DNA from: Kiritimatiellia bacterium
GTDB taxonomy: Bacteria; Verrucomicrobiota; Kiritimatiellia; RFP12; UBA1067
DNA: 64,000 bases
NCBI GenBank assembly: GCA_045536845.1
Contig: JAZSOG010000052.1
Location: 8,932-72,931, forward strand
Direction: 5' to 3'
Positions 463 to 55,920 of this stretch are shown piece by piece; the first letter of the stretch is position 1, and the number at the start of each line of letters is the position of its first letter. The notes under the pieces are model-generated. The model was not told where the DNA came from, ran no database searches, and worked only from the letters and a program-made list of their open reading frames with translations. Position numbers and translations under genes: made by a program.

Positions 463-476
463 TATAATACACTCCT

Positions 477-2933: not shown

Positions 2934-2955
2934 CGTCGGGGGGTTAATCTAAGAA

Positions 2956-3969
2956 GTGTCGCAAGTTCATGTCATAATTGGCGAAGACGACTATCTCGTG
3001 TCGGAGGCCGCGAAGCGGATCGTTGGCGACGGCATCGGGCTCGAGACGGTCGACTCTGCCAATTCGACGAACGAGGAACTTCAGCTAAGAGATCTCCGCG
3101 AGGCCGAGGCGTCGCTTCTGACGCCTCCTTTCCTCGACCCCAAGAAAACGACATGGTGGCGCAACGTCGGGTTCCTGCCGCAAAGCGGGAAGGGTGGCTC
3201 GTCCGAGGCGGTCAAGGCGGCGCTTGAGAAGTTTGCCGAGAAGCTCGCCGCCGCAGACCTTCCTGAAAACCAGCATTTCATCCTCTCTGGCCCGCGCCTA
3301 CTCCAGACTTCGATTTTCGCCAAGACGCTTAAGGCGTCGGTCGAGATGGTCGTCTTTTCCGCCGGTAAACCGTGGGAGCAGGCGAAGGCCGCAGCCGTGC
3401 GAGTCATCGATCTTGCGAAGGAGATGGGGCTTTCATTTGAGCGCGGCGCGGCGGAGATCTTTGTCGCCCGCGTCGGTCCAGATTCGCGCTCGCTCGCGAG
3501 CGAACTTGCGAAGATGCGCGACTACCTCGGCGGCGAGCGCAGCAAGATAACTGCCGCCGACATCGCGGAAGTCACTTCTCAAGGCGTTGGCGTCGAGCCG
3601 GAGATATGGGCGATAACAGACGCGCTTGGCGAGAGAAACTTTGCGAAGGTGCTCGATTCCGTTAGCCGCTTTGAGCGCGAGAATGGCTTTGCGGTTCTTG
3701 TTACGACGGTAGTGGAGAAGTTCTTCCGACAGCTTGCGGAGCTTAAGGACGCCGAGGCGAAAGGACGCTTCGGCGAGGCGACCGAGGGCATGAACCCGTA
3801 TGCCGCGAGGAAGAACCAGGGATTTCTCCGCAACTGGTCGCTGAACGAGCTTCGCGCCGCGCGCTTCCGCTTTCTCGAACTGCGCGAACGCGCCGTCTCG
3901 TCGCAATCCGCCGACGCCCTCGTTGTCGCGCGTCTCGCGCAGGTCTGCCGCAGGAGGGCTGCGCGGTGA
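2956..3969 (+). CDS. holA: DNA polymerase III delta subunit
   Basis: N-terminal VIIGEDDYLV, LASELAKMRDY, ITAADIAEV, IWAITDALGERN match HolA; 337 aa. Confidence 0.85.
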   Translation: MSQVHVIIGEDDYLVSEAAKRIVGDGIGLETVDSANSTNEELQLRDLREAEASLLTPPFLDPKKTTWWRNVGFLPQSGKGGSSEAVKAALEKFAEKLAAADLPENQHFILSGPRLLQTSIFAKTLKASVEMVVFSAGKPWEQAKAAAVRVIDLAKEMGLSFERGAAEIFVARVGPDSRSLASELAKMRDYLGGERSKITAADIAEVTSQGVGVEPEIWAITDALGERNFAKVLDSVSRFERENGFAVLVTTVVEKFFRQLAELKDAEAKGRFGEATEGMNPYAARKNQGFLRNWSLNELRAARFRFLELRERAVSSQSADALVVARLAQVCRRRAAR

Positions 3970-4679
3970 GCCGCGAGATGCTAAACCTGAAAAACGCCGC
4001 GGAGCACGTTCACATGGATGCGAACGAGCTTCGGCACGTGGCGCAGCGCGGCGAGATAGAGTTCGACGAGCACGGCGGTGACCTTTGGTTTGAACATCGC
4101 GTCCTCGACGAGTGGGCGCAGCGCAACTTGCTCGCTTCGGGCCGCAAGGAGCAACTTCGCCAGCATAGCGTCATCCTCGAAGAGCAGCGCCGCTCAAACA
4201 GTTCCGACTGGCGCGTATGGCGGCTTTTCGCGCCGACGGGGATCGTGCTCGATGTCCCTGGCAAGGCGAAGGCGGGGATACTGCGCGACATGACGAGCAT
4301 CGCGGACGCGACCGGTTTCGTCTACGATCCTGACGGGCTTTTCAAGGAGCTTGTCGCTCGCGAGGAAACGGCGTCTACGGCTGTCGGCGAGGGTGCGGCA
4401 TTTCTCCATCCTCGCTTCCACGACCCGTATATGTTCCAGGAGACGTTCATCGCCTACGGGCGCAGCGAGCGGCCTGTATTCTTTGGCGCGCCCGACGGGC
4501 AGGGCACGCGTCACTTTTTCCTCGTGTGCTCGACCGACCACGAAATGCATCTTCACATTCTCGCACGCCTCGCAGTCATGGCGCATGCAACCGAGTTTCT
4601 CCAGATACTCGACGAGGCGACGAGTCCGGAGCAGGTCGTCGAGATAGTCCGCGCGGCGGAGGAGGGTCTGCTTAAATGA
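3966..4679 (+). CDS. Excisionase-like HTH fused to a PTS EIIA (Fru/Ntr-type) domain
   Basis: N-terminal LNLKNAAEHVHMD HTH; REETASTAVGEGAAFLHPR phospho-His motif; HLHILARLA. Confidence 0.8.
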   Translation: MSREMLNLKNAAEHVHMDANELRHVAQRGEIEFDEHGGDLWFEHRVLDEWAQRNLLASGRKEQLRQHSVILEEQRRSNSSDWRVWRLFAPTGIVLDVPGKAKAGILRDMTSIADATGFVYDPDGLFKELVAREETASTAVGEGAAFLHPRFHDPYMFQETFIAYGRSERPVFFGAPDGQGTRHFFLVCSTDHEMHLHILARLAVMAHATEFLQILDEATSPEQVVEIVRAAEEGLLK

Positions 4680-5314
4680 AGAAGCTCTGGTTCTTTGACC
4701 TCGACGGCACTCTCGCCGATACCGACCGAGACATCCGCGAGGCGTGGAAGGCGACGCTTGCCGACCTCGGGCTCGAGTGCCCCGGCTTCGACGCCGGTTT
4801 TGTCGCAGGTCCGCCGATCGAGGACATGGCAAGGACGCTTTTCCCCGAGATCTATACCGACGCGCTTGGCGCGGCGATTCGAAAGGGCTTCGGCGAGCAC
4901 TACGACAACGACGGCTTTCCGAACACTGTCGAGTATCCGGGAATCGTCGACCGCGTGCGCGAGCTGAAGGCGTCTGGCGCGACAGTCGTCGTTGCGACGA
5001 ACAAGCGCTATGTCGGTGCGAGGCTGATTGCGGAGAAGTTCGGCTGGGAGCGCGTCTTTGACGGCATCTACGCCGGTGACATGTTCAAGGACGATCCCGC
5101 GATAGGCAAGATGACGAAGTCGGTGCTTCTTTCGTTTCTCATGCGGAAATACGCCGCGACGCCAGAGGAATGTGCAATTGTCGGTGACACGAAGAGCGAC
5201 TTTATTGCGGCGAAGGACAACGGTATCGAATCAGTCGGCGTTACATGGGGCTACGGCAAACCCGAGGAGCTCGCCCTCGCGAGCCGTATTGCCCATACCC
5301 CTGCCGAAGTATGA
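4676..5314 (+). CDS. HAD-family hydrolase, phosphoglycolate phosphatase-like
   Basis: FDLDGTLADT, ATNK, IVGDTKSD, GVTWGYG. Confidence 0.9.
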   Translation: MKKLWFFDLDGTLADTDRDIREAWKATLADLGLECPGFDAGFVAGPPIEDMARTLFPEIYTDALGAAIRKGFGEHYDNDGFPNTVEYPGIVDRVRELKASGATVVVATNKRYVGARLIAEKFGWERVFDGIYAGDMFKDDPAIGKMTKSVLLSFLMRKYAATPEECAIVGDTKSDFIAAKDNGIESVGVTWGYGKPEELALASRIAHTPAEV

Positions 5315-5330
5315 TATAATATAGCGGACA

Positions 5331-6041
5331 ATGTTTGAAGTGCGGAACATCGCGTTTACCTACCACAAGAAGCAAGTCTTGCGGGATGTGTCGTTTGTCG
5401 TCTCTCCAGGCGAGGTCGTGTGCGTGATTGGGGCCAACGGAGCCGGCAAGACGACGCTTCTCAAGGTGCTTGCGACCCTTGCCGCGCCCGATTCCGGCGT
5501 AGTGATGGTCGACGGCCAGAACGCATTTGCGAAACCCTTGCGTTACCGCCGCCAGCTCGGCTATCTGCCCGAGCGCGTCGCTCTCTACGAGGAGATGACC
5601 GTCAAGGAGTACTTGAACTACCGCGCCGCGCTGAAGGGCGAGCCGGTGAAGCGCATCCGCAGGCGCGTCGACGAGGCGTGCGAGATGTGCAAGGTGTCGG
5701 AATTCCTGCGTTCCCCGATTGGAAGTCTCTCCGCTGGGCTAAAGAAGCGCGTGGCGCTCGCAGATGCGCTTCTCCTGAGGCCGCGCGTCCTGCTCTTGGA
5801 CGACTTCCTCGCGGGGCTCGACAGCGACATGCGCGAAACCGCTGGCGCCGTGCTGTCAAACGCCGCCGCGTTCTCGTCGGTCATAGCGACAGGACACGAG
5901 CTTGACGATCTCGCAAAGTGGGCGACAAGGTTCTTCATTCTCAGGGACGGGGTGATTTCCGCGTCCGTGTCGGCCGTAGGCGTCGACAGGAGTTCCATTC
6001 GCGGCCGTATTGCCGCGGCGCTAAAGGGGAGCATCTCATGA
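5331..6041 (+). CDS. ABC transporter ATP-binding protein, GldA-like
   Basis: Walker A GANGAGKT, LSAGLKKRV signature, LLLDD Walker B. Confidence 0.9.
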   Translation: MFEVRNIAFTYHKKQVLRDVSFVVSPGEVVCVIGANGAGKTTLLKVLATLAAPDSGVVMVDGQNAFAKPLRYRRQLGYLPERVALYEEMTVKEYLNYRAALKGEPVKRIRRRVDEACEMCKVSEFLRSPIGSLSAGLKKRVALADALLLRPRVLLLDDFLAGLDSDMRETAGAVLSNAAAFSSVIATGHELDDLAKWATRFFILRDGVISASVSAVGVDRSSIRGRIAAALKGSIS

Positions 6042-8104
6042 GTCCGGTGCGCGTCACTTGGAGGCGCACCATCGGCCGTGCGCGCAGCCTCTACTCTACG
6101 GCGTTCGCAGCTGGCGGGTTCCTTGCGGCCGCGGCGGCTCTCTTCGCGTTCAAGCTCGATGCGGCAGAAGGCGCCAGTCTCTCGGTCGCATCCGTCTGGG
6201 CGGCGAGCGTCTCTCCGTTCCTCCCCGCGCTCGCGGCGTTCTTTGCGATGGACGTATGGAGCGACGAGCTGCAGTCGGGGCGCGTAGAACTTCTTCTTAC
6301 TACTCCGGTGAGGGAGCGCGAATTTACGCTCGGCAAGTTCCTCGGCGTCTTTTCGATGGTAGTGATTTCAACGTTCCTCTCGTTTGCCTCGACCGTAGTC
6401 GCGCTGCGCATATATGCGCCGTCTGCGCTCGCTGGCGTCGGCGTTCTCGGCTTCTGCCCCGCGTTTCTCGCGCTTATGCTCCAGAGCGTCCTCTGGTGCG
6501 CGGTTTCGGTCGCGATGAGCTCCCTTTTCCGGCATGCAGCGGCGGCAGCGTGTGCGTCGCTCCTCCTTCTGGTAGGCATCCCTCGCGGCGGATGGGCCGC
6601 GCTTCTCGCCTGGGCCCCGCAGGGCAGGACGGCGTTCGGGGAGATGATTCTCGACGCGCATGTGATCGACATGTCCTCGGGTCTTTTCTCGTCGGGCACA
6701 GTCCTCTCGTATCTCGTCCTTTCGTCGTTCTTCCTCTTCGTCGCCTCGAAGAACGTCGCCATGTACCGCTACAGTGGTCGAGGCGGCCGTTCGTTGCGGT
6801 TTTCCACCGCCTTTGCGATAGTCCTCGCCGGTGTCTTCTCTGGGCTTGTCGTCGAACTCGTGAACCGTCTCGACTCGAAGCTCGACCTGCCGGTCGGAAA
6901 CCTCGAGACCGAGTTCTCCGGCAGGACACGCGGCATACTTTCCTCGGCTCAGGGTGAAATGACGGTGACGTGCTTCCTTCCCCGCAAGGACGCGCGCTTC
7001 CGCCCGATTGGTCGCTTCCTCCGTCGTCTCCAGCGCGAGTCGGCGTCGCTCGGCGGGCTCAATATAGACCTCCGCTTCGTAGATCCGCTGTGGGATCTCG
7101 GCCCGGCTGAACGGCTCGTGCGCCTTGGCGCTGCCGAGGGCAGTCTCGTCTTCGAGAAGGGCCGCCGCAACGTCGTGCTGCCGCTTGCCGAGGGATATGG
7201 CGAGCGGATATGCGCGTCGTCCATACAGAGCCTCACGGTGCCGCCGCAGAGGCGCAACGTCTACTGGACCGTCGGGCACGGCGAGGCGGCTAGCGAGGAA
7301 TACGGCACCTTCGGAATGAGCGACATAGCGCGCGACCTTTCGCGCGAAGGGTACAGGAACATGCCGATCGACCTCGCGGGCGACGCGCAGATTCCGTCTG
7401 ACTGCGCTCTCATAGTCGTCGCCGGCGCGAAGGAAGACTTCTCCCGCGCAGAGGCAGGCCGCATCGACTCGTATCTCCGCGCAGGCGGTCGTCTTCTCGT
7501 CCTTCTCGCGACGGCAGATTTCGGCGGCGTCGCCTCGCTGCTCCCCGGCTGGGGTCTCAGGCCCTCTTTGGTGACGACGACCGGCGCAAAGTCTCTTTCG
7601 GGAACCGACCTCATCGTCGGAGAGTTCTCCGAACATGCGATTTCGAAGCCGCTGCAGGGCTCTCGCATCGTCCTCGAGCGGCCTGTCGGCTTCATGCCGT
7701 CCGCCGCCGCGGAAACGGGAACAGGTGCCGACCGCATAGAGTTCACTCCGCTCGCCAAGGCGGGCACCGCTGTGGTCGCGGCTGCGGTTGAGCGCGGAGT
7801 GGGAGCGGGCGCAGACCTTTCGATACGCCCGATGCGCATAGTGGCGATAGGCGACGCTGGCTTCGTCATGAACGGCCAGCTCGCGGCGCGCGCCAACGCC
7901 AACCGCGACTTCTTCCTGAACTGCGTCGCGTATCTCTCGGGAACGGACGCGTCGGTCGCGAGCGGAGCCGAGACGAATGTGCTGACGACAGGGCTTGACC
8001 GCGCCGCGCGGATACACTTCGCCGCCGTAATCGCCGGCGCCGTTCCGTTCGTCGTGTTCCTGCTGCTGATGGCGGTCGCCGCCAGAAGGAGGCGTCGCGC
8101 ATGA
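6038..8104 (+). CDS. ABC-2 permease fused to a GldG/GIFT-like substrate-binding domain
   Basis: ATGA overlap with the ATPase; multi-TM N-terminus (ELLLTTPVREREFTLGKF); VYWTVGHGE and NRDFFLNCVAYL are GldG-like. Confidence 0.8.
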   Translation: MSPVRVTWRRTIGRARSLYSTAFAAGGFLAAAAALFAFKLDAAEGASLSVASVWAASVSPFLPALAAFFAMDVWSDELQSGRVELLLTTPVREREFTLGKFLGVFSMVVISTFLSFASTVVALRIYAPSALAGVGVLGFCPAFLALMLQSVLWCAVSVAMSSLFRHAAAAACASLLLLVGIPRGGWAALLAWAPQGRTAFGEMILDAHVIDMSSGLFSSGTVLSYLVLSSFFLFVASKNVAMYRYSGRGGRSLRFSTAFAIVLAGVFSGLVVELVNRLDSKLDLPVGNLETEFSGRTRGILSSAQGEMTVTCFLPRKDARFRPIGRFLRRLQRESASLGGLNIDLRFVDPLWDLGPAERLVRLGAAEGSLVFEKGRRNVVLPLAEGYGERICASSIQSLTVPPQRRNVYWTVGHGEAASEEYGTFGMSDIARDLSREGYRNMPIDLAGDAQIPSDCALIVVAGAKEDFSRAEAGRIDSYLRAGGRLLVLLATADFGGVASLLPGWGLRPSLVTTTGAKSLSGTDLIVGEFSEHAISKPLQGSRIVLERPVGFMPSAAAETGTGADRIEFTPLAKAGTAVVAAAVERGVGAGADLSIRPMRIVAIGDAGFVMNGQLAARANANRDFFLNCVAYLSGTDASVASGAETNVLTTGLDRAARIHFAAVIAGAVPFVVFLLLMAVAARRRRRA

Positions 8105-9789
8105 AGAACATGCGTATAATCGTCTGGCTTCTTGCGGGCATTTCGCTGCTCGTCGCGGCGAACTTCTTCCTCTCGTTCAACGACACGCCGGAAACTGCGA
8201 TCGTGCAGCGCAGGAGTCTGCTGACAGTTCCCGACGATGCCGTTTCGATGCTCGAGATATCGCGCGACGGCTCTGTTGAGTCGGTCCTTACGCGCACGGG
8301 CAGTTGGCGTCTCGTCGAGCCGTTTCCCGGCAGCGTAGACGAATCCGTCGTGCTGAAGCTTCTCGACGCGCTCGCGTATGCGCCGCTGGACGACTCGCTC
8401 GGCGACCAGGAGCTCCTGAAACTCGGCAGGACGCGCGCCGACTTCGGCCTCGAGAATCCGCGCCTTTGCATACGCGTGAGGGCAGGCGATACCGAGACTT
8501 CGATTTCCTTTGGCACAACCACGCCTTCGGCGTCTGGAGTTTATGCGGCGATAGAAGGCGTCCACGCGGTGTTTGTCGTTCCTTCGAACACTCTTGCCGC
8601 CGTTGACGTGCCGGCGTCTGGTTTCCGCCGCCGCACGCTGTTTACCTCCGGCGAGGAATCGGTCGCTTCGTTCGACGTGAAGCGCGGCACCGGTGAGTTC
8701 ATGCGCTTCAAGAGAGACGGCGACGGCTGGGCCATGGTGCAGCCGACCGAGGGTCCTGCGTCAGCGCCGAAGATCAAGAAGCTCCTTACCGACGTGATGT
8801 CTGCGAGCGCCTATGATTTCGTGTGGCCCATCGGCGGCTCCAACGAGGTTGCAGAGGTGTCGGGCGCGCTTCTCGCCGGCTACGGCCTTGGCGCCGAGAA
8901 CGCAGTCACGCTGACGCTGAAGGGCACGGACGGTTCGGACAGGCGCATATCTTTCGGTTCCGATGCCGGCGAAGGCCGCGTTTATGCTCTCGTCCACAAC
9001 GGCTCTGCGATAGTCACCGTCGACGGGTCTTTGAAGGACATGGCATCGCTTGGCAATTCCGCGTTTGCCGACACGCGTCTCTTCCCGTACGAGGCCTCGC
9101 AGGTCAACGGCATTTCGATCGTTGACGGTGGAGTCACTTGCATGCTGGCTAAGAACGACGACGGTTCGTGGCGCATGGATTCGCCCATTTCCGCGCCTGC
9201 GTCGCTTACGGCCGTCGAGTCGCTTGTGTCGGCCGTGCTTGCGCTTCGCGGCGGCGATGCAGACGAGAAGGGCGTGGAGGTCTCGATCTCCGCCGACGAG
9301 CGCAAGGTGCATGTGGCCCGCGGGTCGCTTGGCACGCATTTCCGTCTCGAGAATCTCCGCAGTCTCGAGATACTGAAGATAGACCCCGCTTCCGTAAGGC
9401 GGCTTTCCGTCACTGGTACCAACGCGAACAAGATGAAGTCGGTTGCCTATGACCGCGACAGGCGCGCATGGAGCGTCGAGGCGTCTTCCGTTTCCGGCAC
9501 TGTGTCCGAAGGCGGCATAACGCGCGTCCTCGGCGTGGTGAATCCGCTTGAGGCCGGCAGGATCGTGAAGCTCAAGGTGTCGGCGGACGATCTCGGCGGC
9601 TATGGGCTGGACAAGCCGCGGCTTACCGTTGCGATAGATCTTGAACGCGAGGACGCGATAAGGCGCAACATTCTTGTCGGCGATGCGACCGATGGCGGGT
9701 GCTTTGCGACCGTTGGCGCGTCGGATGCCGTTTTTGTGCTGTCGGAGTCGGCGGTGTACGACCTTTCTGCGGACATTGTCGAGGAGTAA
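8101..9789 (+). CDS. DUF4340-like membrane-anchored protein
   Basis: N-terminal TM; repeated DFGLENP / GYGLGAEN / GYGLDKP units; usual companion of GldAFG-like systems. Confidence 0.75.
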   Translation: MKNMRIIVWLLAGISLLVAANFFLSFNDTPETAIVQRRSLLTVPDDAVSMLEISRDGSVESVLTRTGSWRLVEPFPGSVDESVVLKLLDALAYAPLDDSLGDQELLKLGRTRADFGLENPRLCIRVRAGDTETSISFGTTTPSASGVYAAIEGVHAVFVVPSNTLAAVDVPASGFRRRTLFTSGEESVASFDVKRGTGEFMRFKRDGDGWAMVQPTEGPASAPKIKKLLTDVMSASAYDFVWPIGGSNEVAEVSGALLAGYGLGAENAVTLTLKGTDGSDRRISFGSDAGEGRVYALVHNGSAIVTVDGSLKDMASLGNSAFADTRLFPYEASQVNGISIVDGGVTCMLAKNDDGSWRMDSPISAPASLTAVESLVSAVLALRGGDADEKGVEVSISADERKVHVARGSLGTHFRLENLRSLEILKIDPASVRRLSVTGTNANKMKSVAYDRDRRAWSVEASSVSGTVSEGGITRVLGVVNPLEAGRIVKLKVSADDLGGYGLDKPRLTVAIDLEREDAIRRNILVGDATDGGCFATVGASDAVFVLSESAVYDLSADIVEE

Positions 9790-9793
9790 AACG

Positions 9794-11866
9794 ATGAAGG
9801 ACACAGTGATGAAGGACTACGGCGAGGATGTCTTTTCCGAGAAGGCGATACGCGCCTTCCTGCCAAAGACCGTCGCGGCCAAGCTGCTTGCGACGATGCG
9901 TGACGGCAAGCCCCTTGATCCGTCCATCGCGGACGCGGTCGCCGCGGGCATGAAGGACTGGGCCGTCGGGAAGGGCGCGACCCACTTCACCCACTGGTTC
10001 CAGCCGCTCACCGGCGGCACGGCCGAGAAGCACGATGCCTTCCTCGAGCCGACCGGCCCCGCGCAGGCGGTGCAGCGTTTCTCCGGCAAGAACCTGATCG
10101 GCGGCGAGGCGGACGCGAGTTCGTTCCCCTCGGGCGGCCTCAGGTCGACTTTCGAGGCGCGCGGCTACACGGCGTGGGATCCGACTTCCCCTGCGTTCGT
10201 GAAGCGCCACGAGAACGGCGCGACCTTGTGCATACCGACGGCGTTCTGCTCGTTCACTGGCGACACGCTCGACATGAAGACCCCGCTTCTCCGCTCGCTC
10301 CAGGCGCTCACCCGCGCGATGGAGCGGCTGATGGCGAAGTTCTCTCAGCCGAAGGCGCACGTCGAAGTCACGCTCGGCGCCGAGCAAGAGTATTTCCTTG
10401 TCGACAGGCGCTTTTACATGAGGCGCCCCGACCTTCTGCAGACGGGCCGCACGGTGTTCGGCGCTGCGCCCGCGAAGCACCAGCAGCTTGACGACCATTA
10501 CTTCGGCGCGATCAAGCCGCGCGTCCTGAAGTTCATGACTGAGGTCGAGCAGCGCCTTTGGCAGCTCGGAATCCCCGCGAAGACGCGCCACAACGAAGTC
10601 GCGCCCGCGCAGTTCGAGCTCGCGCCGATGTACGAGGATCTTAACCTCGCCGTCGACCACAACATGCTCATCATGGAAGTTCTCCGCCAGACGGCCGAGA
10701 GCAACGGGCTTGTGTGCCTTCTCCACGAGAAGCCATTCAAGGGCGTCAACGGATCTGGCAAGCACTGCAACTGGTCGGTCGCCTATGGCGGGCGCAATCT
10801 CCTTACGCCTGGCGCGAACCCGCGCGAGAATGCGATCTTCCTCACGGTGCTCCTCGCCGTCATCCGCGCGATCGACAAGCATGCCGACATTCTCCGCATG
10901 TCCACCGCCGGCGCTGGCAACGACCACCGTCTCGGCGCGAACGAGGCGCCGCCTGCGATTATCTCGATCTTCCTCGGCGACGAGCTGAACGCCGTCCTCG
11001 ACTCGATAGAGAGTGGAACGCGGCAAATGCGCCGCGGCGGAAAGGGCGGGAAGCTCCGTGTCGGAGTCGATACGCTCCCTGCACTCCCCAAGGACACGAC
11101 CGACCGCAATCGCACTTCGCCGTTTGCGTTCACCGGCAACAAGTTCGAGTTCCGCGCTCCCGGTTCGTCGCAGAACTGCGCGCAGAGCCAGATGGTTCTG
11201 AACACCATCGTCGCAGAGTCGATAGACGCGATCTGCGACAAGCTCGAGGCGATGAAGGGCGACTTCAACGAGAATCTCCAGAAGCTCCTGCAGCGTCTCG
11301 TCAAGGCGCACAGGCGCGTCGTGTTCTCGGGTGACGGCTATTCCGCCGCGTGGCCGAAGGAGGCCGCGAAGAGAGGGCTTCCCAACCTGCGCGACACGAT
11401 GGCTGCGCTTGCGCCGCTTAAGGATCCGCTCAACGTCGCCCTCTTCGAGAAGTACGGCGTTCTCTCGAAAAGCGAGATGCTCTCCCGCTGGGAGATCGGC
11501 ATGGAAGACTACCACCGCCGCATCCGCATCGAGGCGTCGATTTCGCTCGAGATCGCGCGTTCGATGATACGCCCCGTCGTCGCGGACGAGTTCTCTCGCC
11601 TTGCAACGGCGCTCGGCCAGGCCAAGGCCGACGGACTCAAGTACGGCATGCGCGGTCTTACTGCGCTTTCGTCCAAGCTTGGCGCCGGCCTCGACGATTT
11701 GCACGTCAAGTGCGACCGTCTCGAGAAGGCCCTTGCCCGCAAGCGCCACGAGTCGCAGATCGTCGCGATGAACGACCTCCGCCGCACCGTCGACCGTCTC
11801 GAAAGTCTCGTCGACGACTCGCGCTGGCCGCTTCCGAAATACCGCGAGATCCTCTTCGTCCACTGA
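9794..11866 (+). CDS. glnA: Glutamine synthetase type III
   Basis: THFTHWFQPLTG, GEADASSFPSGG, HNEVAPAQFE, HEKPFKGVNGSGKH, DRNRTSPFAFTGNKFEFR; alternative start at 9809. Confidence 0.95.
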   Translation: MKDTVMKDYGEDVFSEKAIRAFLPKTVAAKLLATMRDGKPLDPSIADAVAAGMKDWAVGKGATHFTHWFQPLTGGTAEKHDAFLEPTGPAQAVQRFSGKNLIGGEADASSFPSGGLRSTFEARGYTAWDPTSPAFVKRHENGATLCIPTAFCSFTGDTLDMKTPLLRSLQALTRAMERLMAKFSQPKAHVEVTLGAEQEYFLVDRRFYMRRPDLLQTGRTVFGAAPAKHQQLDDHYFGAIKPRVLKFMTEVEQRLWQLGIPAKTRHNEVAPAQFELAPMYEDLNLAVDHNMLIMEVLRQTAESNGLVCLLHEKPFKGVNGSGKHCNWSVAYGGRNLLTPGANPRENAIFLTVLLAVIRAIDKHADILRMSTAGAGNDHRLGANEAPPAIISIFLGDELNAVLDSIESGTRQMRRGGKGGKLRVGVDTLPALPKDTTDRNRTSPFAFTGNKFEFRAPGSSQNCAQSQMVLNTIVAESIDAICDKLEAMKGDFNENLQKLLQRLVKAHRRVVFSGDGYSAAWPKEAAKRGLPNLRDTMAALAPLKDPLNVALFEKYGVLSKSEMLSRWEIGMEDYHRRIRIEASISLEIARSMIRPVVADEFSRLATALGQAKADGLKYGMRGLTALSSKLGAGLDDLHVKCDRLEKALARKRHESQIVAMNDLRRTVDRLESLVDDSRWPLPKYREILFVH

Positions 11867-11896
11867 CGCCTCGCGTCTCCGCCCGCCTGTCTCCCC

Positions 11897-12787
11897 ATGA
11901 GAAGCGCGTATGGATTTGATTCGAGGGTCTACCTCCTGGACGTGACCGACCGGTGCCCGAACCGGCGGACGATGCAGGAGCTCGTTGACGTGCTCGCGCG
12001 CTTCGGCTACAACGAATTCTACCTTTACGATACGGCGAAGGAGCGGGAAGTGCCACTTGAGACGGCGAAGACTGAGGCCTACTGCCGTATGCAGGGAATC
12101 GGCTTCAAGGTCGTGGGCGAGGACTTTCGCCGCGAAATCGAGGCGGACGCGAAGACAGTAGTCGCGCCGACGTTTGCCGCGCGCTCGCTCTGCGGGCGCA
12201 TCGAGGAGATGCGCGAGGCAATGGAGCGCGCCGAGGCTGCGGGCTCCGAGCGAAAGGCGACGCGCTTCGTCGTGACGGACTTCTCCGACGGCTATGCGTG
12301 GCATCCGCTCTGCGTGTCGCTTCCCGCGATAATCCTCGCCGGGAACTTCATGACCGCGGGTCGCGTCGCGGCAAAGATGGACTTGGAGAAAGACCTCTGC
12401 TCGGTGATGGATCTTCCTGTTGGCGGGCTTCTCCAGAAACTTGGTACGCTCTACCTCCGTGGCGGCGCCGTGAAGCCAGACTCCTCCGAGTATTTCAACA
12501 TACTCGCTGGCGACGTCGGCTACTCGCGCCACCCGGGGCTTACGCAGTTCGTGCTCGACGACGTCTCGGCAGTCGCGCGCGGCGTGCGGATTGCGCTTGA
12601 GCGCTGGCTTGACCGAAGCGACTGGGCGAAGGAGATTTCCTATGCGGCGCTCCTGCTCGAATGTTCGTGCCATAGGCGCGACGAGCGGCGACTGCGCGAG
12701 CTCCGCGACCTCCACGGACACGTCTGGCGCATGCGCTTTGAGCCCGAAGGCAGGGTCGAATCTCTCGCAAAGCTGCCCAGATTCTGA
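11897..12787 (+). CDS. GH20-related protein lacking the central catalytic region
   Basis: N-terminal YLLDVTDRCP..LVDVLARFGYNEFYLY and later FVVTDFSDGYAWHP resemble the two ends of a GH20 barrel; only 296 aa. Confidence 0.55.
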   Translation: MRSAYGFDSRVYLLDVTDRCPNRRTMQELVDVLARFGYNEFYLYDTAKEREVPLETAKTEAYCRMQGIGFKVVGEDFRREIEADAKTVVAPTFAARSLCGRIEEMREAMERAEAAGSERKATRFVVTDFSDGYAWHPLCVSLPAIILAGNFMTAGRVAAKMDLEKDLCSVMDLPVGGLLQKLGTLYLRGGAVKPDSSEYFNILAGDVGYSRHPGLTQFVLDDVSAVARGVRIALERWLDRSDWAKEISYAALLLECSCHRRDERRLRELRDLHGHVWRMRFEPEGRVESLAKLPRF

Positions 12788-15732: not shown

Positions 15733-15946
15733 TAAACAGTGTGGCTATCATGAGTGAAGCGTCACTTCCTACACCACACGCGACGCGAAGGAGATCGCCA
15801 AGCTGCAGGCAATGGTGGTGGTTGACGGCAAAAAGTCTATATGATATAATGCTCTTGTAACTTGACTTTCTGAAAATGGCTTGATTTTAGAATCTCTACA
15901 TTCTAATTTTACCTTATTTTCAGAACATGAAGAATCGAGGTGTGTG

Positions 15947-28472: not shown

Positions 28473-28505
28473 TTTTTTGGTATAATATCACCCGTCTTTC
28501 CGACA

Positions 28506-42141: not shown

Positions 42142-42181
42142 GGCGCCGCAGGCCACGGTGAGTTTTGGTATAATACAAGTC

Positions 42182-49110: not shown

Positions 49111-49259
49111 AGTCTGCTCGGGTGAAGCGTCGGCAGTGTTCTTTCAGGCGGAAAACCCGGTTTTGTCGAGGATTCTTCGGTCTCGCAATTGTTCGCTGCG
49201 AATGCCTATGGTATAATATCCTTAATGGGCACAGCGAATCCAGCCAGAGGAGGCAAGGC

Positions 49260-50720: not shown

Positions 50721-51329
50721 TTAGAATCGGTGCGCTGCCGCGCATTGCCCTAATATTATATCATTTCCCTGTTCTTTTATGACCTTCGCGGGGACTCCAG
50801 CGACGACCGTGCGCGGCGGAACGTCCTTCGTCACGACTGCGCCTGCGCCGACGATTGCACCTTCGCCGATTGTCACACCAGGACAGATCGTCACTCGTGC
50901 ACCGAGCCATACCGTGTCGCAGATTTTGACCGGCTTCGGAATCATCCCGCCGCGCTTTTCGGGATCGGGGTCGTGGTTCAGCGTCGCGATGATCGTCTGC
51001 GGACCGATCAGCACATCGTCGCCGATTGTGATGCCTCCTTGGTCCTGAAACTGGCAGCCAGCGTTGATGAACACGCGCTTCCCGATTCTGGTGTTCTTCC
51101 CGCAGTCGGTGTGGAAGGGCGGGAACATGGCGAATGACTCGTCGATCTCGCTCGCCGTCAGCTTTGACATCAACGCGCGCACTTCCTCGGGCGTGTGATA
51201 CGTGCCGTTCAGCTCGGCCGTAATCTTGAGCGCCTCCTGCGAGAAAGCGTGAAACGCCTTGTGCAGTTTGCTTCCCGCTGGGATGTATTTCGTCTCGGCC
51301 ATCGCCTTTCTGAATTCTTCAACTGTCAT
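50721..51329 (-). CDS. Sugar O-acetyltransferase (hexapeptide repeat, Maa/LacA family)
   Basis: PPFHTDCGKN, VWLGARVTICPGVTIGEGAIVGAGAVVTKDV. Confidence 0.92.
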   Translation of the reverse strand: MTVEEFRKAMAETKYIPAGSKLHKAFHAFSQEALKITAELNGTYHTPEEVRALMSKLTASEIDESFAMFPPFHTDCGKNTRIGKRVFINAGCQFQDQGGITIGDDVLIGPQTIIATLNHDPDPEKRGGMIPKPVKICDTVWLGARVTICPGVTIGEGAIVGAGAVVTKDVPPRTVVAGVPAKVIKEQGNDIILGQCAAAHRF

Positions 51330-52423
51330 TTTAGGTTCTTCCTGTAGAACGCCTCGATACGGTCAAAGGGAATGGCGTCCTTTCCGCCGCCGTCGTAGAG
51401 GTCGCAGTGGCTCGCGCCGGGGACGATGACGAGTTCCTTGTTGTCGCCCCTGAGCATCTTGTAGGCAGTTTCGCCGAAGTAGCGGCTATGAGCTTTCTCG
51501 CCATGCAACACCATGACAGCGCTCTCGATCTCGCCCGCGTAGGCGAGCAGCTTTGCGTTGAGGAACGAAAGAAAACACGTCTTGTTCCAGCCGTCCGTCG
51601 AATTGAGTGAGCGCGTATGGAAGCCACGTGGCGTCTTGTAGTAGGCGTGGTAGTCCTTGACGAACTGCGGCGCGTCGGCGGGAAGTGGATCAACCACACC
51701 GCCGCCGCGCTCGGGCTTGCCAGTCTTGAAATCGACAATGCGTTGGGCGTTCATCGCCTCGCGCTTCTCCTTGCGCTTGGCCGCTGAATCCTCCGCGTCG
51801 TTGTAGCCATTCGCCGTGACGCGCGTCATGTCGTACATCGTCGAGGCGACCGTCGCCTTGACGCGAGTGTCGATTGCGGCGGCATTGATGGCGAGTCCAC
51901 CCCAGCCGCAGATGCCAAGGATGCCGATCTTCTCCGCGTCCACATCATCGCGGGAGATGAGATAATCGACCGCCGCCTGGAAGTCCTCCGTGTTGATGTC
52001 CGGTGAGGCGACATAGCGCGGCTCGCCTCCCGATTCGCCCGTGAAGGACGGATCGAAGGCGATGGTCAGGAAGCCGCGTTCCGCGAGCGTCTGGGCGTAG
52101 AGCCCTGACGACTGCTCCTTCACTGCGCCGAACGGACCCGAGACCGCAATCGCCGCAAATTTCGGCGTGCGCGGCGCGCCCGCCCTACCGTTACCTGTTC
52201 CCCATTCCCCGTTCCCCACCTTCGGCTTATACACGTCCGCCGTGAGCGTGATCCCGAAACGGTTTTTGAATGTCGCCTTTGCGTGTTCTACCTTCTCGGA
52301 CTTCGGGAACGTCTTGTCCCACTCCTCTGCGAGCGGGAGGGACACGCTTGTCGCGTCCGCCGTGCAGACGCCGCCCGCGACCAATGTCGCGATTGCAAGT
52401 TCTTTCATCATTTCATTCTCCAT
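51326..52423 (-). CDS. Secreted alpha/beta hydrolase (YcjY/dienelactone-hydrolase-like)
   Basis: SGPFGAVKEQSSGLYA, FDPSFTGESGG, GICGWGG Cys nucleophile elbow, GASHCDLYD. Confidence 0.9.
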   Translation of the reverse strand: MENEMMKELAIATLVAGGVCTADATSVSLPLAEEWDKTFPKSEKVEHAKATFKNRFGITLTADVYKPKVGNGEWGTGNGRAGAPRTPKFAAIAVSGPFGAVKEQSSGLYAQTLAERGFLTIAFDPSFTGESGGEPRYVASPDINTEDFQAAVDYLISRDDVDAEKIGILGICGWGGLAINAAAIDTRVKATVASTMYDMTRVTANGYNDAEDSAAKRKEKREAMNAQRIVDFKTGKPERGGGVVDPLPADAPQFVKDYHAYYKTPRGFHTRSLNSTDGWNKTCFLSFLNAKLLAYAGEIESAVMVLHGEKAHSRYFGETAYKMLRGDNKELVIVPGASHCDLYDGGGKDAIPFDRIEAFYRKNLK

Positions 52424-52517
52424 TTTGATTGTGTTGTCCTGTTGCGGTGAAAAAGAAAACACGGGCATTATACTGTATTGGGCTAACAATAACAAATACA
52501 GATTTCGTATCGGATGC

Positions 52518-52534
52518 CATAATTGATGATTATG
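52518..52534. promoter_or_regulatory. LysR-type box upstream of the hydrolase operon
   Basis: CATAA-TTGATGA-TTATG (T-N11-A dyad). Confidence 0.6.
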
Positions 52535-52667
52535 ATAGCGACAATTCCGCCGCGTCAAAGCGTCTTATCGTGCAATGCTCGAAAACCCGATACTCAAACC
52601 GTCGCCCGAATGGTCGGCGGCAGAGGCCGTCTGTATGGCGCATTCTGAATACTATGCGACAGGCAAC

Positions 52668-53597
52668 TCACCGCCACCCACCTTCACATTCAAGATTGGT
52701 GTCGTTTGGCTTTGGATTGAATGCCGTACGCATATTGAGTCGGATGCCATATTCCGACTTCTCGAAGATCAAGCCGTAATTGGCCGACACGAGTTCGCCC
52801 TTGTCATTTACCTTCGTTCGTGTCCTAAAAACCATGTACTTGTTTCTGGGCATTTCGACGTTGCGCTCAACATTACCAGTCTTGCGGTCGTAAACATATT
52901 CAAGGGATTTCAGATAAACTGCATTCGTATCTGCGCTATAGCATCTATTCATCTTGCTGAAATCATCCGTCGGCACAAGATACACGCCGTCAAGACAGTT
53001 AGTCATCGTAACATCAAGATGCGAATATACCTGAAACCAGTTTGTAGGAGAACGCCAGAAATCATACTTGATCTGCAAATCATCATACTTGCCATTTCCG
53101 TATGGCGGACACCACTCAAACTGCTTTAGGTCAAGACCCATGACAACATTTGTAGCCGGATATTTAAGTTCTTGAAACGCTCCGCCATTAAGAATCAACT
53201 TGGCAGGATGGCGTTTCTTTTTTAGCGTCGCCGTCGTTTCAACAGTTCCTTCAGACCACTTGCGCAGACGCTCCGCATCTTTGTCTGGTAGCACTCTGAA
53301 ACTTGGGTCTATCTTTGTTTCGTAGTAGCCGTCCTTGCGAATCCACGCATGAGCCTCGCCTATGCAAAGACCGCTGGCAGCAAAACAGCCCTCCGCGTCA
53401 GTTTTGCCGCGCTTTACATCAACCTTCTGCGGTGCCGTGTAGAACGTCACAGAAATCGCCGCATCCGACACGGCTTTGCCCAGATCATCAACGACTTTGA
53501 TTTTGACATCCGCCAACGCGCCGTCAATTATGGGGCTATATGCAGCAACAGAATGAACAACGCCAACTGCCGCGAAAAGACAAGCAAATAATTTCAT
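52668..53597 (-). CDS. Secreted protein with carboxypeptidase-regulatory-like N-domain; candidate immunity partner
   Basis: Signal peptide, VKIKVVDDLGKAVSDAAI..GKTDAEG, KDGYYET, C-terminal FNPKPNDTNLE; ATGA coupling to the upstream gene. Confidence 0.65.
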   Translation of the reverse strand: MKLFACLFAAVGVVHSVAAYSPIIDGALADVKIKVVDDLGKAVSDAAISVTFYTAPQKVDVKRGKTDAEGCFAASGLCIGEAHAWIRKDGYYETKIDPSFRVLPDKDAERLRKWSEGTVETTATLKKKRHPAKLILNGGAFQELKYPATNVVMGLDLKQFEWCPPYGNGKYDDLQIKYDFWRSPTNWFQVYSHLDVTMTNCLDGVYLVPTDDFSKMNRCYSADTNAVYLKSLEYVYDRKTGNVERNVEMPRNKYMVFRTRTKVNDKGELVSANYGLIFEKSEYGIRLNMRTAFNPKPNDTNLECEGGWR

Positions 53598-54790
53598 TGG
53601 TTCAACCCTCCAACTTCGACAATCTTCTGAAAGACCGGATGCACGAAGAAATATGCAACGTTCTTTATGTCCGAATGAAGAAACCGCCCGCCCAACTGCC
53701 CGTCATCAGGGCGCGGCCACGTGTTAGCCATATACAGAGGTGCATTCATGTCGATAGACTCCATTATATCCTCCCTGAACCTTGTCCGCCCCGTCGGCGG
53801 TGAAAGTGCCGGGGTGCCTTGCGTAAGATGAGAGTCGATTTCAAGGCGTGTGGCAACTGCGTTCGTGATTGAGATCGGAAAGGGATCGAACACCGTGTTT
53901 GTGTTAAACACGGAAAGATCGGTCACGGCATTTGCATCATCCTCGCTCCAAACCCTTGCTCCAAGCAAATTGCTCTTGAAGCCCCAGCCAGACCACACCG
54001 TCGTACCGATGAAACCTAAAAGAGATTTGCGACCTTTGTAGAGTTCCTGTTTGTGCCACGAATAGCGTTCGCCCCAGTTGCCAGACGGACTGAATCCGTT
54101 ATACCACGATGGATTGTGCGCATCCGTGTACAGTTCCAAAACCTCGTCGCCGGACGAGTAGAAGTTTACCGCGACAGGCACGACAGCGGCGAATCTGCCG
54201 CGCCACGTCAAGGCGTTTCGCGCGTCGCCGGAAGCGAAAAGCTTATGCCATTCCGACGTCCAACAGGCATTCGTGTAGCCCGTCCATTCGCCATGCACAA
54301 GCCTATTTGTCGGCGATGTGTCAGCAAGCGATGGGTCAAACGCCTCAGACGGGATGGCAGAATTGAGCATAATGAGCTTTTCGACCTGCATCCCGTAGTC
54401 CTGAATCGCGGCTGCGGCAACCATCGTGCCGAGACTGTGGGCAATGACAACGCGGCGTCCGGGGATGCTGTTTATATACGGCGCAAGACGAGAGGCTGTC
54501 ACAAAGGCATTGGAGGCGTTGACCTGATAGTTGTATGACGGCCCGATATCGGACTCCCACGCTATCGGGTAGAACTCCATGTTCGCCCCGGCCTGCCACA
54601 GTCGCTTGAACATCTCAGACGCCCATGCACGGGCATTCTGCTCGCTTACGTTCGCCCCGTGGATGAAAAAGACATTTGCCTTTTCCGCACTGGCGGCAAG
54701 CGGCGGCAAAATTGCCGCGAACGCGAGAAGGGATCCCGCGAGGCGGCGGCAAATCTGCCGCGATAGGTGCTTGTGGCGATATTGTCGCAT
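53594..54790 (-). CDS. Secreted alpha/beta hydrolase (lipase/esterase fold, DUF900-like); candidate toxin domain
   Basis: Signal peptide, FIHGANV, IAHSLG nucleophile elbow, C-terminal LHSD. Confidence 0.75.
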   Translation of the reverse strand: MRQYRHKHLSRQICRRLAGSLLAFAAILPPLAASAEKANVFFIHGANVSEQNARAWASEMFKRLWQAGANMEFYPIAWESDIGPSYNYQVNASNAFVTASRLAPYINSIPGRRVVIAHSLGTMVAAAAIQDYGMQVEKLIMLNSAIPSEAFDPSLADTSPTNRLVHGEWTGYTNACWTSEWHKLFASGDARNALTWRGRFAAVVPVAVNFYSSGDEVLELYTDAHNPSWYNGFSPSGNWGERYSWHKQELYKGRKSLLGFIGTTVWSGWGFKSNLLGARVWSEDDANAVTDLSVFNTNTVFDPFPISITNAVATRLEIDSHLTQGTPALSPPTGRTRFREDIMESIDMNAPLYMANTWPRPDDGQLGGRFLHSDIKNVAYFFVHPVFQKIVEVGGLNQ

Positions 54791-54985
54791 TTCTGGATGG
54801 CATCAATTATACCAAAATCTGACTGTTTATAGTACGGCGGTTTGCTTTCAAATTTGACGCTATGCGAGATAAATGGGCGTTTTGCCGCACAAAATAGAAC
54901 ATAGGGCGTAGCACTTTTGTCTGGCCTGCTCATCTGATGCGATGGGCTGGACAACGCAGCGCGGCACTTCAGAAGTCAAGCGACG

Positions 54986-55008
54986 AGGCATAATTTACAC
55001 TTATGCCT
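54986..55008. promoter_or_regulatory. LysR-type autoregulatory box
   Basis: Perfect inverted repeat AGGCATAA-tttacac-TTATGCCT just upstream of the lysR -10. Confidence 0.75.
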
Positions 55009-55029
55009 TAATGTGGTATATTATGCGGC

Positions 55030-55920
55030 ATGGACTTGCGAATACTCAGGTATTTTCTTGCCGTGGCGGACGAGGGGAACATCACCCGCGCCGCCGAACG
55101 GCTGCACGTTTCGCAGCCTGCGCTCTCCACGCAGCTTGCCGCGCTGGAGGACGAACTTGGGCATAAGCTCTTCGAGCGTGGCGCTCGCGGAATAGAGCTC
55201 ACGGAGAAAGGCATCGCGCTCAAACGCCGCGCCGACGACCTCGTTGATCTCGCCGAGCGCATCGAGGCCGAGATCAAGGCGTCCGACACGGACGAAATCG
55301 TCGGCACGGTCTCCATCGGCGCGGGCGAGACTCCGGCATTCCGCTTTGTCGCCCGCGCTGCGGAAGAACTCCGCCGCAGGAATCCGAAACTGCAATTCTC
55401 CGTGTCGTCCGGCAACGGCGAGGACATCGTTGCCCACTTGCGCGAGGGGACCTTTGACCTTGGCGTGCTTGTCGGCCCCGGACGCTACGACGGCTTCGAC
55501 TACCTGACGCTGCCCTACACGCATCACTGGGGACTTGCCATCAAAAAGGATTCGCCGCTTGCCGCGAAGAAGCGCATCTCGCCGAAGGATGCGAGAGGGA
55601 TTCCGCTCATCTGTTCGCGTCAGGCGATGGTGAAGGAGTTTCTCGCCGGATGGTTCGGCTGTCCGTTCGGGAAGCTGAACGTGGTCGCCAACTACAATCT
55701 CATCTACAACGCGGCCGTTTTCGTCGAGGCGGGGCTGGGCGCGGCAATCTGCATTGACGGCATGATCCCGCAGGAATTCTCCGGGAGCGTCGTGTTCCGT
55801 CCGTTCGCGCCCGCGCTCGTCAGCGACGTCTATCTCGCATGGCGCAAGAACTCCGCGCTCTCGCCTACCGCATCTGCACTCGTCGATGCCGTCAGATGTC
55901 AGCAGAAAATGGTTTGCTAA
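55030..55920 (+). CDS. LysR-family transcriptional regulator
   Basis: LRYFLAVADEGNITRAAERLHVSQPALSTQL. Confidence 0.97.
   Translation: MDLRILRYFLAVADEGNITRAAERLHVSQPALSTQLAALEDELGHKLFERGARGIELTEKGIALKRRADDLVDLAERIEAEIKASDTDEIVGTVSIGAGETPAFRFVARAAEELRRRNPKLQFSVSSGNGEDIVAHLREGTFDLGVLVGPGRYDGFDYLTLPYTHHWGLAIKKDSPLAAKKRISPKDARGIPLICSRQAMVKEFLAGWFGCPFGKLNVVANYNLIYNAAVFVEAGLGAAICIDGMIPQEFSGSVVFRPFAPALVSDVYLAWRKNSALSPTASALVDAVRCQQKMVC

Follow-up and report, generated by a model that had tools for sequence, protein, structure and literature searches.

The window analysed here is a stretch of 64,000 nucleotides from the genome bin of a Kiritimatiellia bacterium (source genome G000, contig C42, positions 8932-72931; bin of 3.04 Mb, 89% complete). 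On its minus strand lies a cassette of two genes. Gene 1 encodes an exported alpha/beta hydrolase of 398 amino acids, a putative toxin, and gene 2 an exported all-beta two-domain protein of 309 amino acids, its partner and putative immunity protein (for coordinates see Table 1). An initial annotation, made from the letters of the sequence, had described the two genes as a coupled pair in a patch of low guanine plus cytosine (G+C) content. Both open reading frames (ORFs) are as described, the stop codon of gene 1 is joined to the start codon of gene 2 in an ATGA overlap, and the G+C content is 0.43-0.53 over approximately 52400-55000 versus 0.60-0.64 in both flanks. Since there is an in-frame TGA five codons upstream, gene 1 starts with the ATG at 54790. 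The end of the gene 2 protein had been placed at NDTNLE, which has to be corrected: the protein runs six residues further (CEGGWR, then the stop codon) and ends with FNPKPNDTNLECEGGWR.

The motifs HG (44-45), AHSLG (117-121) and HSD (372-374), by which the gene 1 protein had been recognized as a serine hydrolase, are all present, and H44-G45, S119 (in AHSLG), E216 and H372-S373-D374 are invariant in 31 aligned homologues, of which 303 were found in total; D215 is conserved in at least 90% of the 31. Gene 1 carries the complete residue set of a serine hydrolase, the catalytic role of these residues being predicted from the fold. In the AlphaFold2 (AF2) model (predicted local distance difference test, pLDDT, 70; predicted template modelling score, pTM, 0.71) the core is confident and the insertions are uncertain. 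Foldseek and profile searches of the PDB returned generic hydrolases and lipases, including pancreatic lipase, lipoprotein lipase and PlaB of Legionella; the best sequence/profile match in the PDB, to pancreatic lipase, is weak (E 0.02). To call the predicted protein lipase-like is reasonable. In Pfam only the generic Abhydrolase_6 model scored above its cut-off (E 8.8e-7), with PGAP1 (21.9 bits; cut-off 24.3), DUF900 (18.4; 20.5) and Tle3 (11.4; 27) below theirs, and there was no match to DUF2235, Lipase_3 or PLD. A paralogue of gene 1 on contig C40 scores 23.2 bits with DUF900 (PF05990), above the cut-off that the window protein does not reach, and precomputed PF05990 assignments are present on some gene 1 homologues.

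The gene 2 protein, of which 129 homologues were found, was modelled with a pLDDT of 91.6 as an all-beta protein of two domains. Only its N-domain, a transthyretin-like sandwich, was matched by Foldseek (teneurin, dioxygenases, CnaB) and by PDB profiles; the Pfam search gave a weak match to CarboxypepD_reg and no other. For the C-domain neither Foldseek nor PDB profiles returned a solved relative, and no immunity fold was recognized. A profile of the partner family finds 1101 clusters at 50% identity (E<=1e-30), nearly all of them proteins of 300-400 amino acids that match from end to end. In homologues down to 25% identity ten residues are invariant, mostly within the second domain: D156, P165, G169 and D173 in the motif CPPYGxGxxDD, R258 and R260 in FRTRT, and F293, N294, N298 and E303 in FNPxPNDTNLE. 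The gene 1 protein had no match in NCBIfam, searches of NCBIfam, PADLOC and PHROGs with both proteins yielded nothing meaningful, and both proteins are without a model of their own in Pfam or NCBIfam and without a solved relative.

Both proteins had been credited with signal peptides, which is borne out: their N-termini are signal-like by eye, and a hydrophobicity heuristic finds an N-terminal hydrophobic segment in 99 of 104 short-form hydrolase homologues (95%) and signal-like N-termini in 94-98% of the partners, with lipoprotein-like boxes in few. After cleavage at the predicted site (AASA/EKANVFFIHG) the mature gene 1 protein would start three residues before the first core strand. The signal-peptide part of gene 1 is not homologous between cassette copies.

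That the two genes are constantly adjacent, that the hydrolase carries N-terminal extensions of variable length and that partners occur in arrays had been proposed as checks in the initial annotation, and all three came out as expected, the adjacency being near-constant. In 78 loci from named genomes there are 70 hydrolase genes whose 3' end is intact and which are followed by 1 kb of DNA or more. The partner gene lies directly downstream of 65 and directly upstream of 2 more (67/70 by strict adjacency); of the remaining three, two (L080, L093) adjoin a partner with a longer N-terminus. The overlap of the two genes is usually 4 nt. Among 41 relatives 14 have both families, 5 and 4 have only the one or the other, and 18 have neither (Fisher p=5e-4). 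The N-terminal extension ranges from none to more than 2000 amino acids, the hydrolase invariably forming the C-terminus, and in agreement with the initial annotation the domain caps secreted proteins of 600-2450 amino acids in both Kiritimatiellia and Verrucomicrobiota. Maximal-ORF lengths overshoot some short forms, L036 for example with 727 amino acids compared with 397 in the NCBI annotation, which is why L036, L042 and L060_5710 were classed as short.

By their labels the carriers belong to Kiritimatiellia or Verrucomicrobiota (Limisphaerales and others). Short contigs with the cassette were also found in odd bins (L055, L073, L074, L096, L110 and 'Lentisphaeraceae' bins), labelled Bacteroidales, Anaerovoracaceae, Lachnospiraceae, Limosilactobacillus and Akkermansia; these are probably mis-binned rather than products of real transfer, and the taxonomic spread should be read with caution.

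The source genome itself contains eight copies of the hydrolase domain and 13 partner matches. Two of the hydrolases are short and both are encoded on C42, the second at C42:84198-85379; the other six lie at the C-terminus of long frames on C7 (1535 amino acids), C14 (at least 1298), C6 (at least 1236), C40 (at least 821), C39 (at least 794) and C48 (627). Behind all eight copies the next ORF ends in a (D/G)xNLE-type motif, and partners stand in tandem arrays of two to four genes: three on C39, four on C40 and two on C7.

The long forms share an N-terminal module (N-module) composed of two hydrophobic helices forming a hairpin, a KTN-like motif, a domain of about 250 amino acids and TSP3 repeats; apart from these repeats it has no match in Pfam. 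In the source genome the same module is found on an RHS-repeat protein of 2345 amino acids with a canonical Rhs-core end and a tip of about 170 amino acids (C1:186073-193110), on proteins ending in a reprolysin-like HEIGHAxG peptidase (C5, C40, C29) and on proteins with other C-termini (C38, C12, C22); no match to the module was found on the window's own contig, C42. In metagenomes it heads hydrolase proteins of about 1540 amino acids and RHS proteins of 2450-2540 amino acids, two of which carry PF14113, the Tae4 amidase effector family. Directly before the hydrolase of long forms lies a module of about 225 residues, seen only beside the hydrolase and ending in a conserved MYRWxNxR. The C-terminal domain of one N-module exoprotein contains a His...Cys pair and by eye resembles a caspase. 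Two truncated long forms at the ends of C39 and C40 (L031 11267, L030 12661) share their first 45 residues (GEEFRLSHTPCDVTISG...); the assembly apparently breaks at this repeated N-terminal region, so that the number and the length of long forms in the source genome are underestimated.

Orphan tips followed by immunity genes, which the initial annotation had named as known from polymorphic toxin loci, are found in this family as well. C-terminal hydrolase fragments lacking the active-site serine and followed by intact partners occur in L101, L085, L080 and L108 (spans in the hidden Markov model 157-393, 181-393, 241-393 and 312-389, respectively) and in the near-complete genome G029; L069 holds a further such fragment with the partner next to it. 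In L059, L065, L070 and L074 the hydrolase gene is frameshifted or internally deleted and the adjoining partner intact. A solitary partner homologue with a lipobox closes a mixed orphan array (L115) in a 98%-complete, hydrolase-free genome; in it are the end of a large protein, a protein with ankyrin repeats, an orphan tip (FVWDP...ATRPL junction, Peptidase_M76-like domain), a lipoprotein and, last, the solitary partner. Polymorphic toxin systems regularly show toxin domains of the alpha/beta-hydrolase fold, ankyrin immunity proteins and poly-immunity loci, and their toxin lengths peak at about 400 amino acids (PMC3482391). In L117 (G028:C92) two distant partner homologues in tandem (3871-4869, 5079-5987), ending YY(Y/F)NPD..SRSLEP, are preceded by two secreted proteins of about 365 amino acids and one protein of 1156 amino acids (6175-7269, 7421-8533, 8530-12000); neither the hydrolase profile nor any Pfam family matches these three proteins. 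To judge from this arrangement, members of the partner superfamily may have other cargo to pair with as well.

The window pair had been called an orphan module, which is misleading. In a maximum-likelihood tree of 59 hydrolase domains all 27 short hydrolases fall in one clade (support 99/97) that is nested among long forms and includes two long forms. Since they form one supported clade, the short forms are an established lineage rather than freshly shed tips. The ratio of nonsynonymous to synonymous substitution rates (dN/dS) is 0.12-0.16 for the hydrolase and 0.10-0.24 for the partner; both cassette genes are under purifying selection. We therefore rejected a recently shed orphan tip as an explanation of gene 1, which has a complete hydrolase domain, its own signal peptide, a dN/dS of about 0.1 and a place in one old short-form clade of 27 members.

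The cassette has been duplicated together with its surroundings. The second pair of C42 lies about 21 kb off, and the duplicated segment takes in the flanking genes of a LysR protein and a DLH-type hydrolase; a blastn comparison gives 79-88% nucleotide identity in the flanks, in the hydrolase gene and in the N-domain of the partner, whose C-domain is not alignable. In the second copy an EcoRV-type restriction-modification (R-M) pair, a D12 methyltransferase and an EcoRV endonuclease, is inserted directly upstream of the hydrolase gene. The closest partner elsewhere (91% identity) adjoins a GmrSD/HNH gene and dnaE, a different neighbourhood, and other copies of the cassette lie among genes of DNA methyltransferases, helicases, Fic and ParB proteins. 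Within the genus the window's version of the cassette is present only in the source genome, the next closest being in another family of the order. Because of these unrelated neighbourhoods and this restriction to one genome of the genus, we conclude that the cassette moves as a unit. Past the partner stop codon, nucleotide identity to the closest cassette relatives drops to approximately 0.4-0.6. In L112-L114 an ORF of 46 amino acids overlaps the partner stop by 4 nt (L112 2512-2652); it has no counterpart in the window.

Partner identity follows hydrolase identity (Spearman 0.84), the partner changing faster. Among close homologues there are three discrete types of partner C-domain, whose distribution disagrees with the hydrolase tree. 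C-domains of the window's type (60-64% identity) are found next to long-form hydrolases sharing only 57-62% identity with gene 1; where the hydrolase shares 75-87% with gene 1, the C-domain of its partner is only about 40% identical to the window's. The two short hydrolases of the source genome are 87% identical and have partners of different types; the N-domains of these partners are 88% and their C-domains 43% identical in amino acids, and the N-domain is conserved among close homologues generally. One hydrolase segment, covered by the scan windows 315-344 and 330-359, tracks the partner C-domain type also after removal of overall identity (partial r 0.46 and 0.36). Within it lies a hypervariable loop, residues 337-345, which in 28 close homologues is RFREDIMES-like with type 1, DLxxxGIxS with type 2 and NLWHKRIPS or DLSDVNVTS with type 3, and is the candidate specificity contact; this covariation is the indirect sign of an interaction between the two proteins.

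At the nucleotide level the window cassette is a mosaic. Hydrolase residues 24-324 are nearest to the in-genome duplicate, and residues 324-398 together with the whole partner are nearest to a distant copy (L112), in both cases with 85-97% identity; the break is near hydrolase residue 324. Divergence from the duplicate is confined to the loop region (60-72%; the loop itself 60% in nucleotides) and the partner C-domain (40-65%), the surroundings being 83-97% identical, and about 180 conserved codons separate the two. The pattern is suggestive of the joint exchange of a specificity loop in the toxin and a specificity domain in the immunity protein. With nine residues as candidate determinant and two copies in one genome, the cassette would be a compact experimental model of toxin-immunity specificity.

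The pair had also been assigned a promoter of its own. Of this claim the extended -10 element stands (TGGTATAAT at 54814-54806 on the minus strand); a -35 element could not be made out by eye, the hexamer 17 nt upstream (TACTAT) agreeing with TTGACA in one of six positions, and a scan with the sigma-70 consensus did not list the TGGTATAAT site of gene 1 among its sites. The word TGNTATAAT occurs 440 times in the 3.04-Mb genome as compared to 6-47 times for permuted words, an approximately 10- to 70-fold over-representation, and in 80% of the cases an ATG-initiated ORF of at least 120 amino acids begins within 120 nt downstream. From these numbers TGNTATAAT would be the main promoter word of the organism. 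The distance from TATAAT to ATG has a sharp mode at 6-9 nt genome-wide, which points to many mRNAs of this bacterium being leaderless, with the extended -10 as the main promoter element; the 15 nt of the cassette are rare and imply a predicted leader of about 8 nt.

Table 1. Features of the cassette, its duplicate and related loci (positions refer to the window unless a contig or locus is named)
Feature	Position	Strand	Basis
Gene 1, 398-aa exported alpha/beta hydrolase, putative toxin	53594..54790	-	ORF list
Gene 2, 309-aa exported all-beta two-domain partner, putative immunity protein	52668..53597	-	ORF list
TGGTATAAT, extended -10 element, 15 nt 5' of gene 1 ATG	54806..54814	-	read in sequence; promoter role inferred
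Gene 1 signal peptide, residues 1-35, ...PPLAASA/EKANVFF	54686..54790	-	by eye, -3,-1 rule
Codon of predicted nucleophile Ser119 (AHSLG)	54434..54436	-	invariant in 31 homologues; catalysis inferred from alpha/beta-hydrolase fold
Hypervariable hydrolase loop, residues 337-345 (RFREDIMES), candidate specificity contact	53756..53782	-	covariation with partner C-domain type
Partner N-domain, residues 27-125, transthyretin/CarboxypepD_reg-like beta sandwich	53223..53519	-	model, Foldseek, profiles
Partner C-domain, residues 130-303, closing with family-wide FNPxPNDTNLE	52689..53210	-	model and alignment
NDTNLE motif of partner	52689-52706	-	alignment
TGNTATAAT sites in the window	460-468, 5312-5320, 15842-15850, 28478-28486, 42166-42174, 49209-49217	+	word search
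TGNTATAAT sites in the window	63543-63535, 54814-54806, 50763-50755, 15668-15660	-	word search
Duplicated segment; second pair at C42:83281-85379, about 21 kb off on the same contig	50772..55865		blastn
Second copy in locus L033	pair 7279-9362; R-M pair 9390-11257		
N-module exoproteins of the source genome	C5:3354-6242; C40:76871-79825; C29:80755-84588; C38:1043-3319; C12:1695-4136; C22:9277-11868		
Mixed orphan array L115 (G034:C128:1-11000)	ORFs 2-1000, 960-1889, 2068-3045, 3039-3860, 4233-5282		

How the hydrolase could reach other cells was considered from the secretion genes of the source genome. The absence of type VI secretion system (T6SS) genes from the window, remarked upon in the initial annotation, extends to the sheath in the whole bin: VipB/TssC had no match in the 89%-complete genome, and a control genome responded. 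Contact-dependent inhibition (CdiB/CdiA/CdiI) works with a TpsB transporter and an exoprotein of haemagglutinin repeats; a search for ShlB/TpsB gave no match in the source genome, but none in the control genomes either, and the long forms have no haemagglutinin-type match in Pfam. There are four secretin genes. Because secretins are present and a T6SS sheath gene was not found, release by type II secretion or in vesicles would be the likeliest route; export in a complex with the partner is a further guess. Colicins leave the cell complexed with their immunity proteins, and by analogy the short lipases might do the same. A few kb from the partner array of C40 lie a prepilin-type and a GspK-like (by eye) pseudopilin gene (L030, G000:C40:94000-106661, at 1499-5052), which may be a coincidence or a hint that type II secretion is involved.

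We propose that the window cassette encodes a lipase-like antagonistic effector and its periplasmic immunity protein, as a variant of the polymorphic toxin systems, and put the probability of this reading at about 0.62. The best explanation of the two families as a whole would be a toxin-immunity system specific to Kiritimatiellia and Verrucomicrobiota, of which the window cassette is the short, Sec-only form. The gene 1 protein would be a lipase-type alpha/beta hydrolase with a Ser-Asp/Glu-His triad, exported by Sec, whose probable targets are membrane lipids, reached from the periplasmic or outer side. The translationally coupled gene 2 would provide a periplasmic two-domain beta protein that binds the hydrolase and keeps it inactive in the producer; its variable C-domain would read loop 337-345 of the hydrolase and thus confer cognate specificity, and contact with the conserved catalytic face would be made by its invariant motifs, the NDTNLE tail among them. 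In the long forms the hydrolase domain would be one cargo among several that are exchanged at the C-terminus of large exoproteins, next to Rhs-encased tips and reprolysin-like peptidases, all with one lineage-specific N-terminal module.

Four points weigh against this proposal. The gene 1 protein resembles only generic lipases and esterases, both in Foldseek and in PDB profiles. The many invariant polar residues of the partner and its conserved N-domain are compatible with a role of its own. The covariation of loop and C-domain could be the product of one recombination block spanning the conserved middle, and would then reflect co-inheritance, not contact. Finally, no domain for translocation or receptor binding is recognizable in the short form and no T6SS sheath gene in the genome, which leaves unexplained how a Sec-exported enzyme would get to the membranes of competitors.

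One rival explanation is a lipase or esterase secreted for nutrition, together with a helper of its own for folding, secretion, anchoring or substrate binding, in logic similar to lipase/Lif operons; the pair would degrade lipids or esters in the gut and not serve antagonism. In its favour, the gene 1 protein folds like generic lipases and esterases, the partner has conserved polar motifs and a conserved beta-sandwich N-domain such as is common in carbohydrate-active and surface proteins, and both genes are under purifying selection. We nevertheless consider this explanation unlikely. A helper does not account for tandem arrays of two to four divergent partners behind one enzyme, for serine-less tips and hydrolase pseudogenes with intact partners, for the solitary partner in an orphan toxin/immunity array, for an N-terminal module in common with Rhs proteins or for the patchy, mobile distribution beside R-M and GmrSD genes; moreover, an all-beta partner with a cleavable signal peptide has little in common with the helical, membrane-anchored Lif foldases of known lipases.

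It may also be that the cassette serves mainly for immunity, the partner guarding against the long-form lipase toxins of neighbours and the short hydrolase not being delivered to other cells. The short form lacks any delivery module, partners outnumber hydrolases in the source genome (13 versus 8 matches), genomes with only the partner exist, and the cassette is mobile and found in defence-type neighbourhoods. We hold this to be quite improbable: selection constrains the hydrolase no less than the partner (dN/dS 0.12), its catalytic residues are all intact, it has its own signal peptide, and 27 of the 59 sampled pairs belong to one radiating short-form clade. A periplasmic lipase that is never delivered would only burden its producer, and the pseudogenized copies elsewhere show that its loss is possible.

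There is little chance that the hydrolase is directed at eukaryotes (rumen protozoa, fungi or host cells), with the partner only shielding the producer during export. The carriers do inhabit the rumen and the gut, both rich in protozoa, and lipase effectors of other secretion systems are reported to hit bacterial and eukaryotic membranes alike. Discrete partner types, orphan immunity-like genes and arrays are, on the other hand, the pattern of conflict between neighbours of the same kind, and no feature of the sequence points to eukaryotes. A role in phage defence was rejected, both proteins being exported and neither having a match in PADLOC.

An antagonistic effector with periplasmic immunity would matter beyond this locus. 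Kiritimatiellia are common and almost uncultured in communities of the rumen and the human gut, and our literature search found no account of toxin systems or competition in these bacteria. If the proposal is true, the cassette and its long-form relatives define a new lipase-type toxin domain, a new family of immunity proteins (over 1100 clusters at 50% identity) and a new delivery module that does without a recognized contact-dependent secretion machine. Only tentatively, and with more doubt than confidence, do we extend the proposal to a T6SS-independent interbacterial weapon system of gut Kiritimatiellia and Verrucomicrobiota, in which the N-terminal module would route exchangeable cargo (the lipase-like domain, Rhs-encased tips, metallopeptidases) out of the cell, the very large partner family would be modular immunity, with a constant N-domain and a swappable C-domain for one hypervariable loop of the toxin, and the short lipases would act as diffusible, bacteriocin-like agents.

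The known systems closest in logic are the Tle phospholipase effectors with their Tli immunity proteins. The Tle families comprise DUF2235, Lipase_3, Tle3/DUF3274, PGAP1-like and PLD proteins; the definitions of Tle1-Tle5 reportedly go back to Russell and colleagues in 2013. As in Tle-Tli, an alpha/beta hydrolase with a GxSxG-type elbow (AHSLG in the window) is encoded next to an exported partner, and a lipase dangerous in the periplasm would be neutralized there. In contrast, gene 1 reaches the cut-off of no Tle family (Tle3 11.4/27 bits, PGAP1 21.9/24.3 bits), no Tle structure is among its best 50 Foldseek matches, the source genome has no gene for a T6SS sheath, the window hydrolase carries its own Sec signal peptide, and the window partner, a beta protein of two domains, belongs to an undescribed family.

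In 2012 Zhang et al. described Tox-ABhydrolase-1, -2 and -3 as tips in polymorphic toxin systems (PMC3482391). There, as in the families described here, a C-terminal hydrolase sits on long secreted proteins with exchangeable tips and an adjacent immunity-like gene, and orphan tips, poly-immunity arrays and a short-toxin peak at about 400 amino acids are found (PMC3482391). Also in the manner of these systems, a small gene of conserved position and variable sequence stands beside the putative toxin gene (67/70; discrete C-domain types), and the long forms have an N-terminal part in common with proteins that end differently, a module that the window gene does not have. On the side of differences, any kinship of the window hydrolase with DUF900 is distant (18.4 versus 20.5 bits; 23.2 bits for one paralogue). 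DUF900 may correspond to Tox-ABhydrolase-2. SUKH immunity proteins are presumably cytoplasmic, whereas the window partner is exported. It is SUKH that serves as immunity for Tox-ABhydrolase type 2 (PMC3482391).

The MafB-MafI toxins of Neisseria and similar Sec-dependent polymorphic toxins with lineage-specific N-domains resemble the system proposed here in their export by signal peptide without an injection machine, their lineage-restricted, conserved N-domain, their polymorphic C-termini and their downstream immunity genes and orphan cassettes (PMC3482391). They differ in that the sequence families are unrelated and the window gene lacks an N-domain; furthermore, the target of the window pair is probably the cell envelope and its immunity-like protein is exported.

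In the LipA-Lif operons of Pseudomonas and Burkholderia the gene of a secreted lipase is followed by that of an envelope-located binding partner, and the Lif foldases are helical, membrane-anchored steric chaperones, one per lipase. The window cassette has the same order, with the gene of a secreted lipase-like protein directly before that of an envelope partner. It departs from LipA-Lif in that its partner is, according to the model, all-beta with a cleavable signal peptide, and partner arrays, solitary partners, orphan tips and discrete specificity types are ill-suited to a foldase.

The window pair is neither a member of a Tle family nor linked to a T6SS; it is Tle/Tli-like in logic and polymorphic-toxin-like in build, and its partner and the N-terminal module of the long forms are undescribed families.

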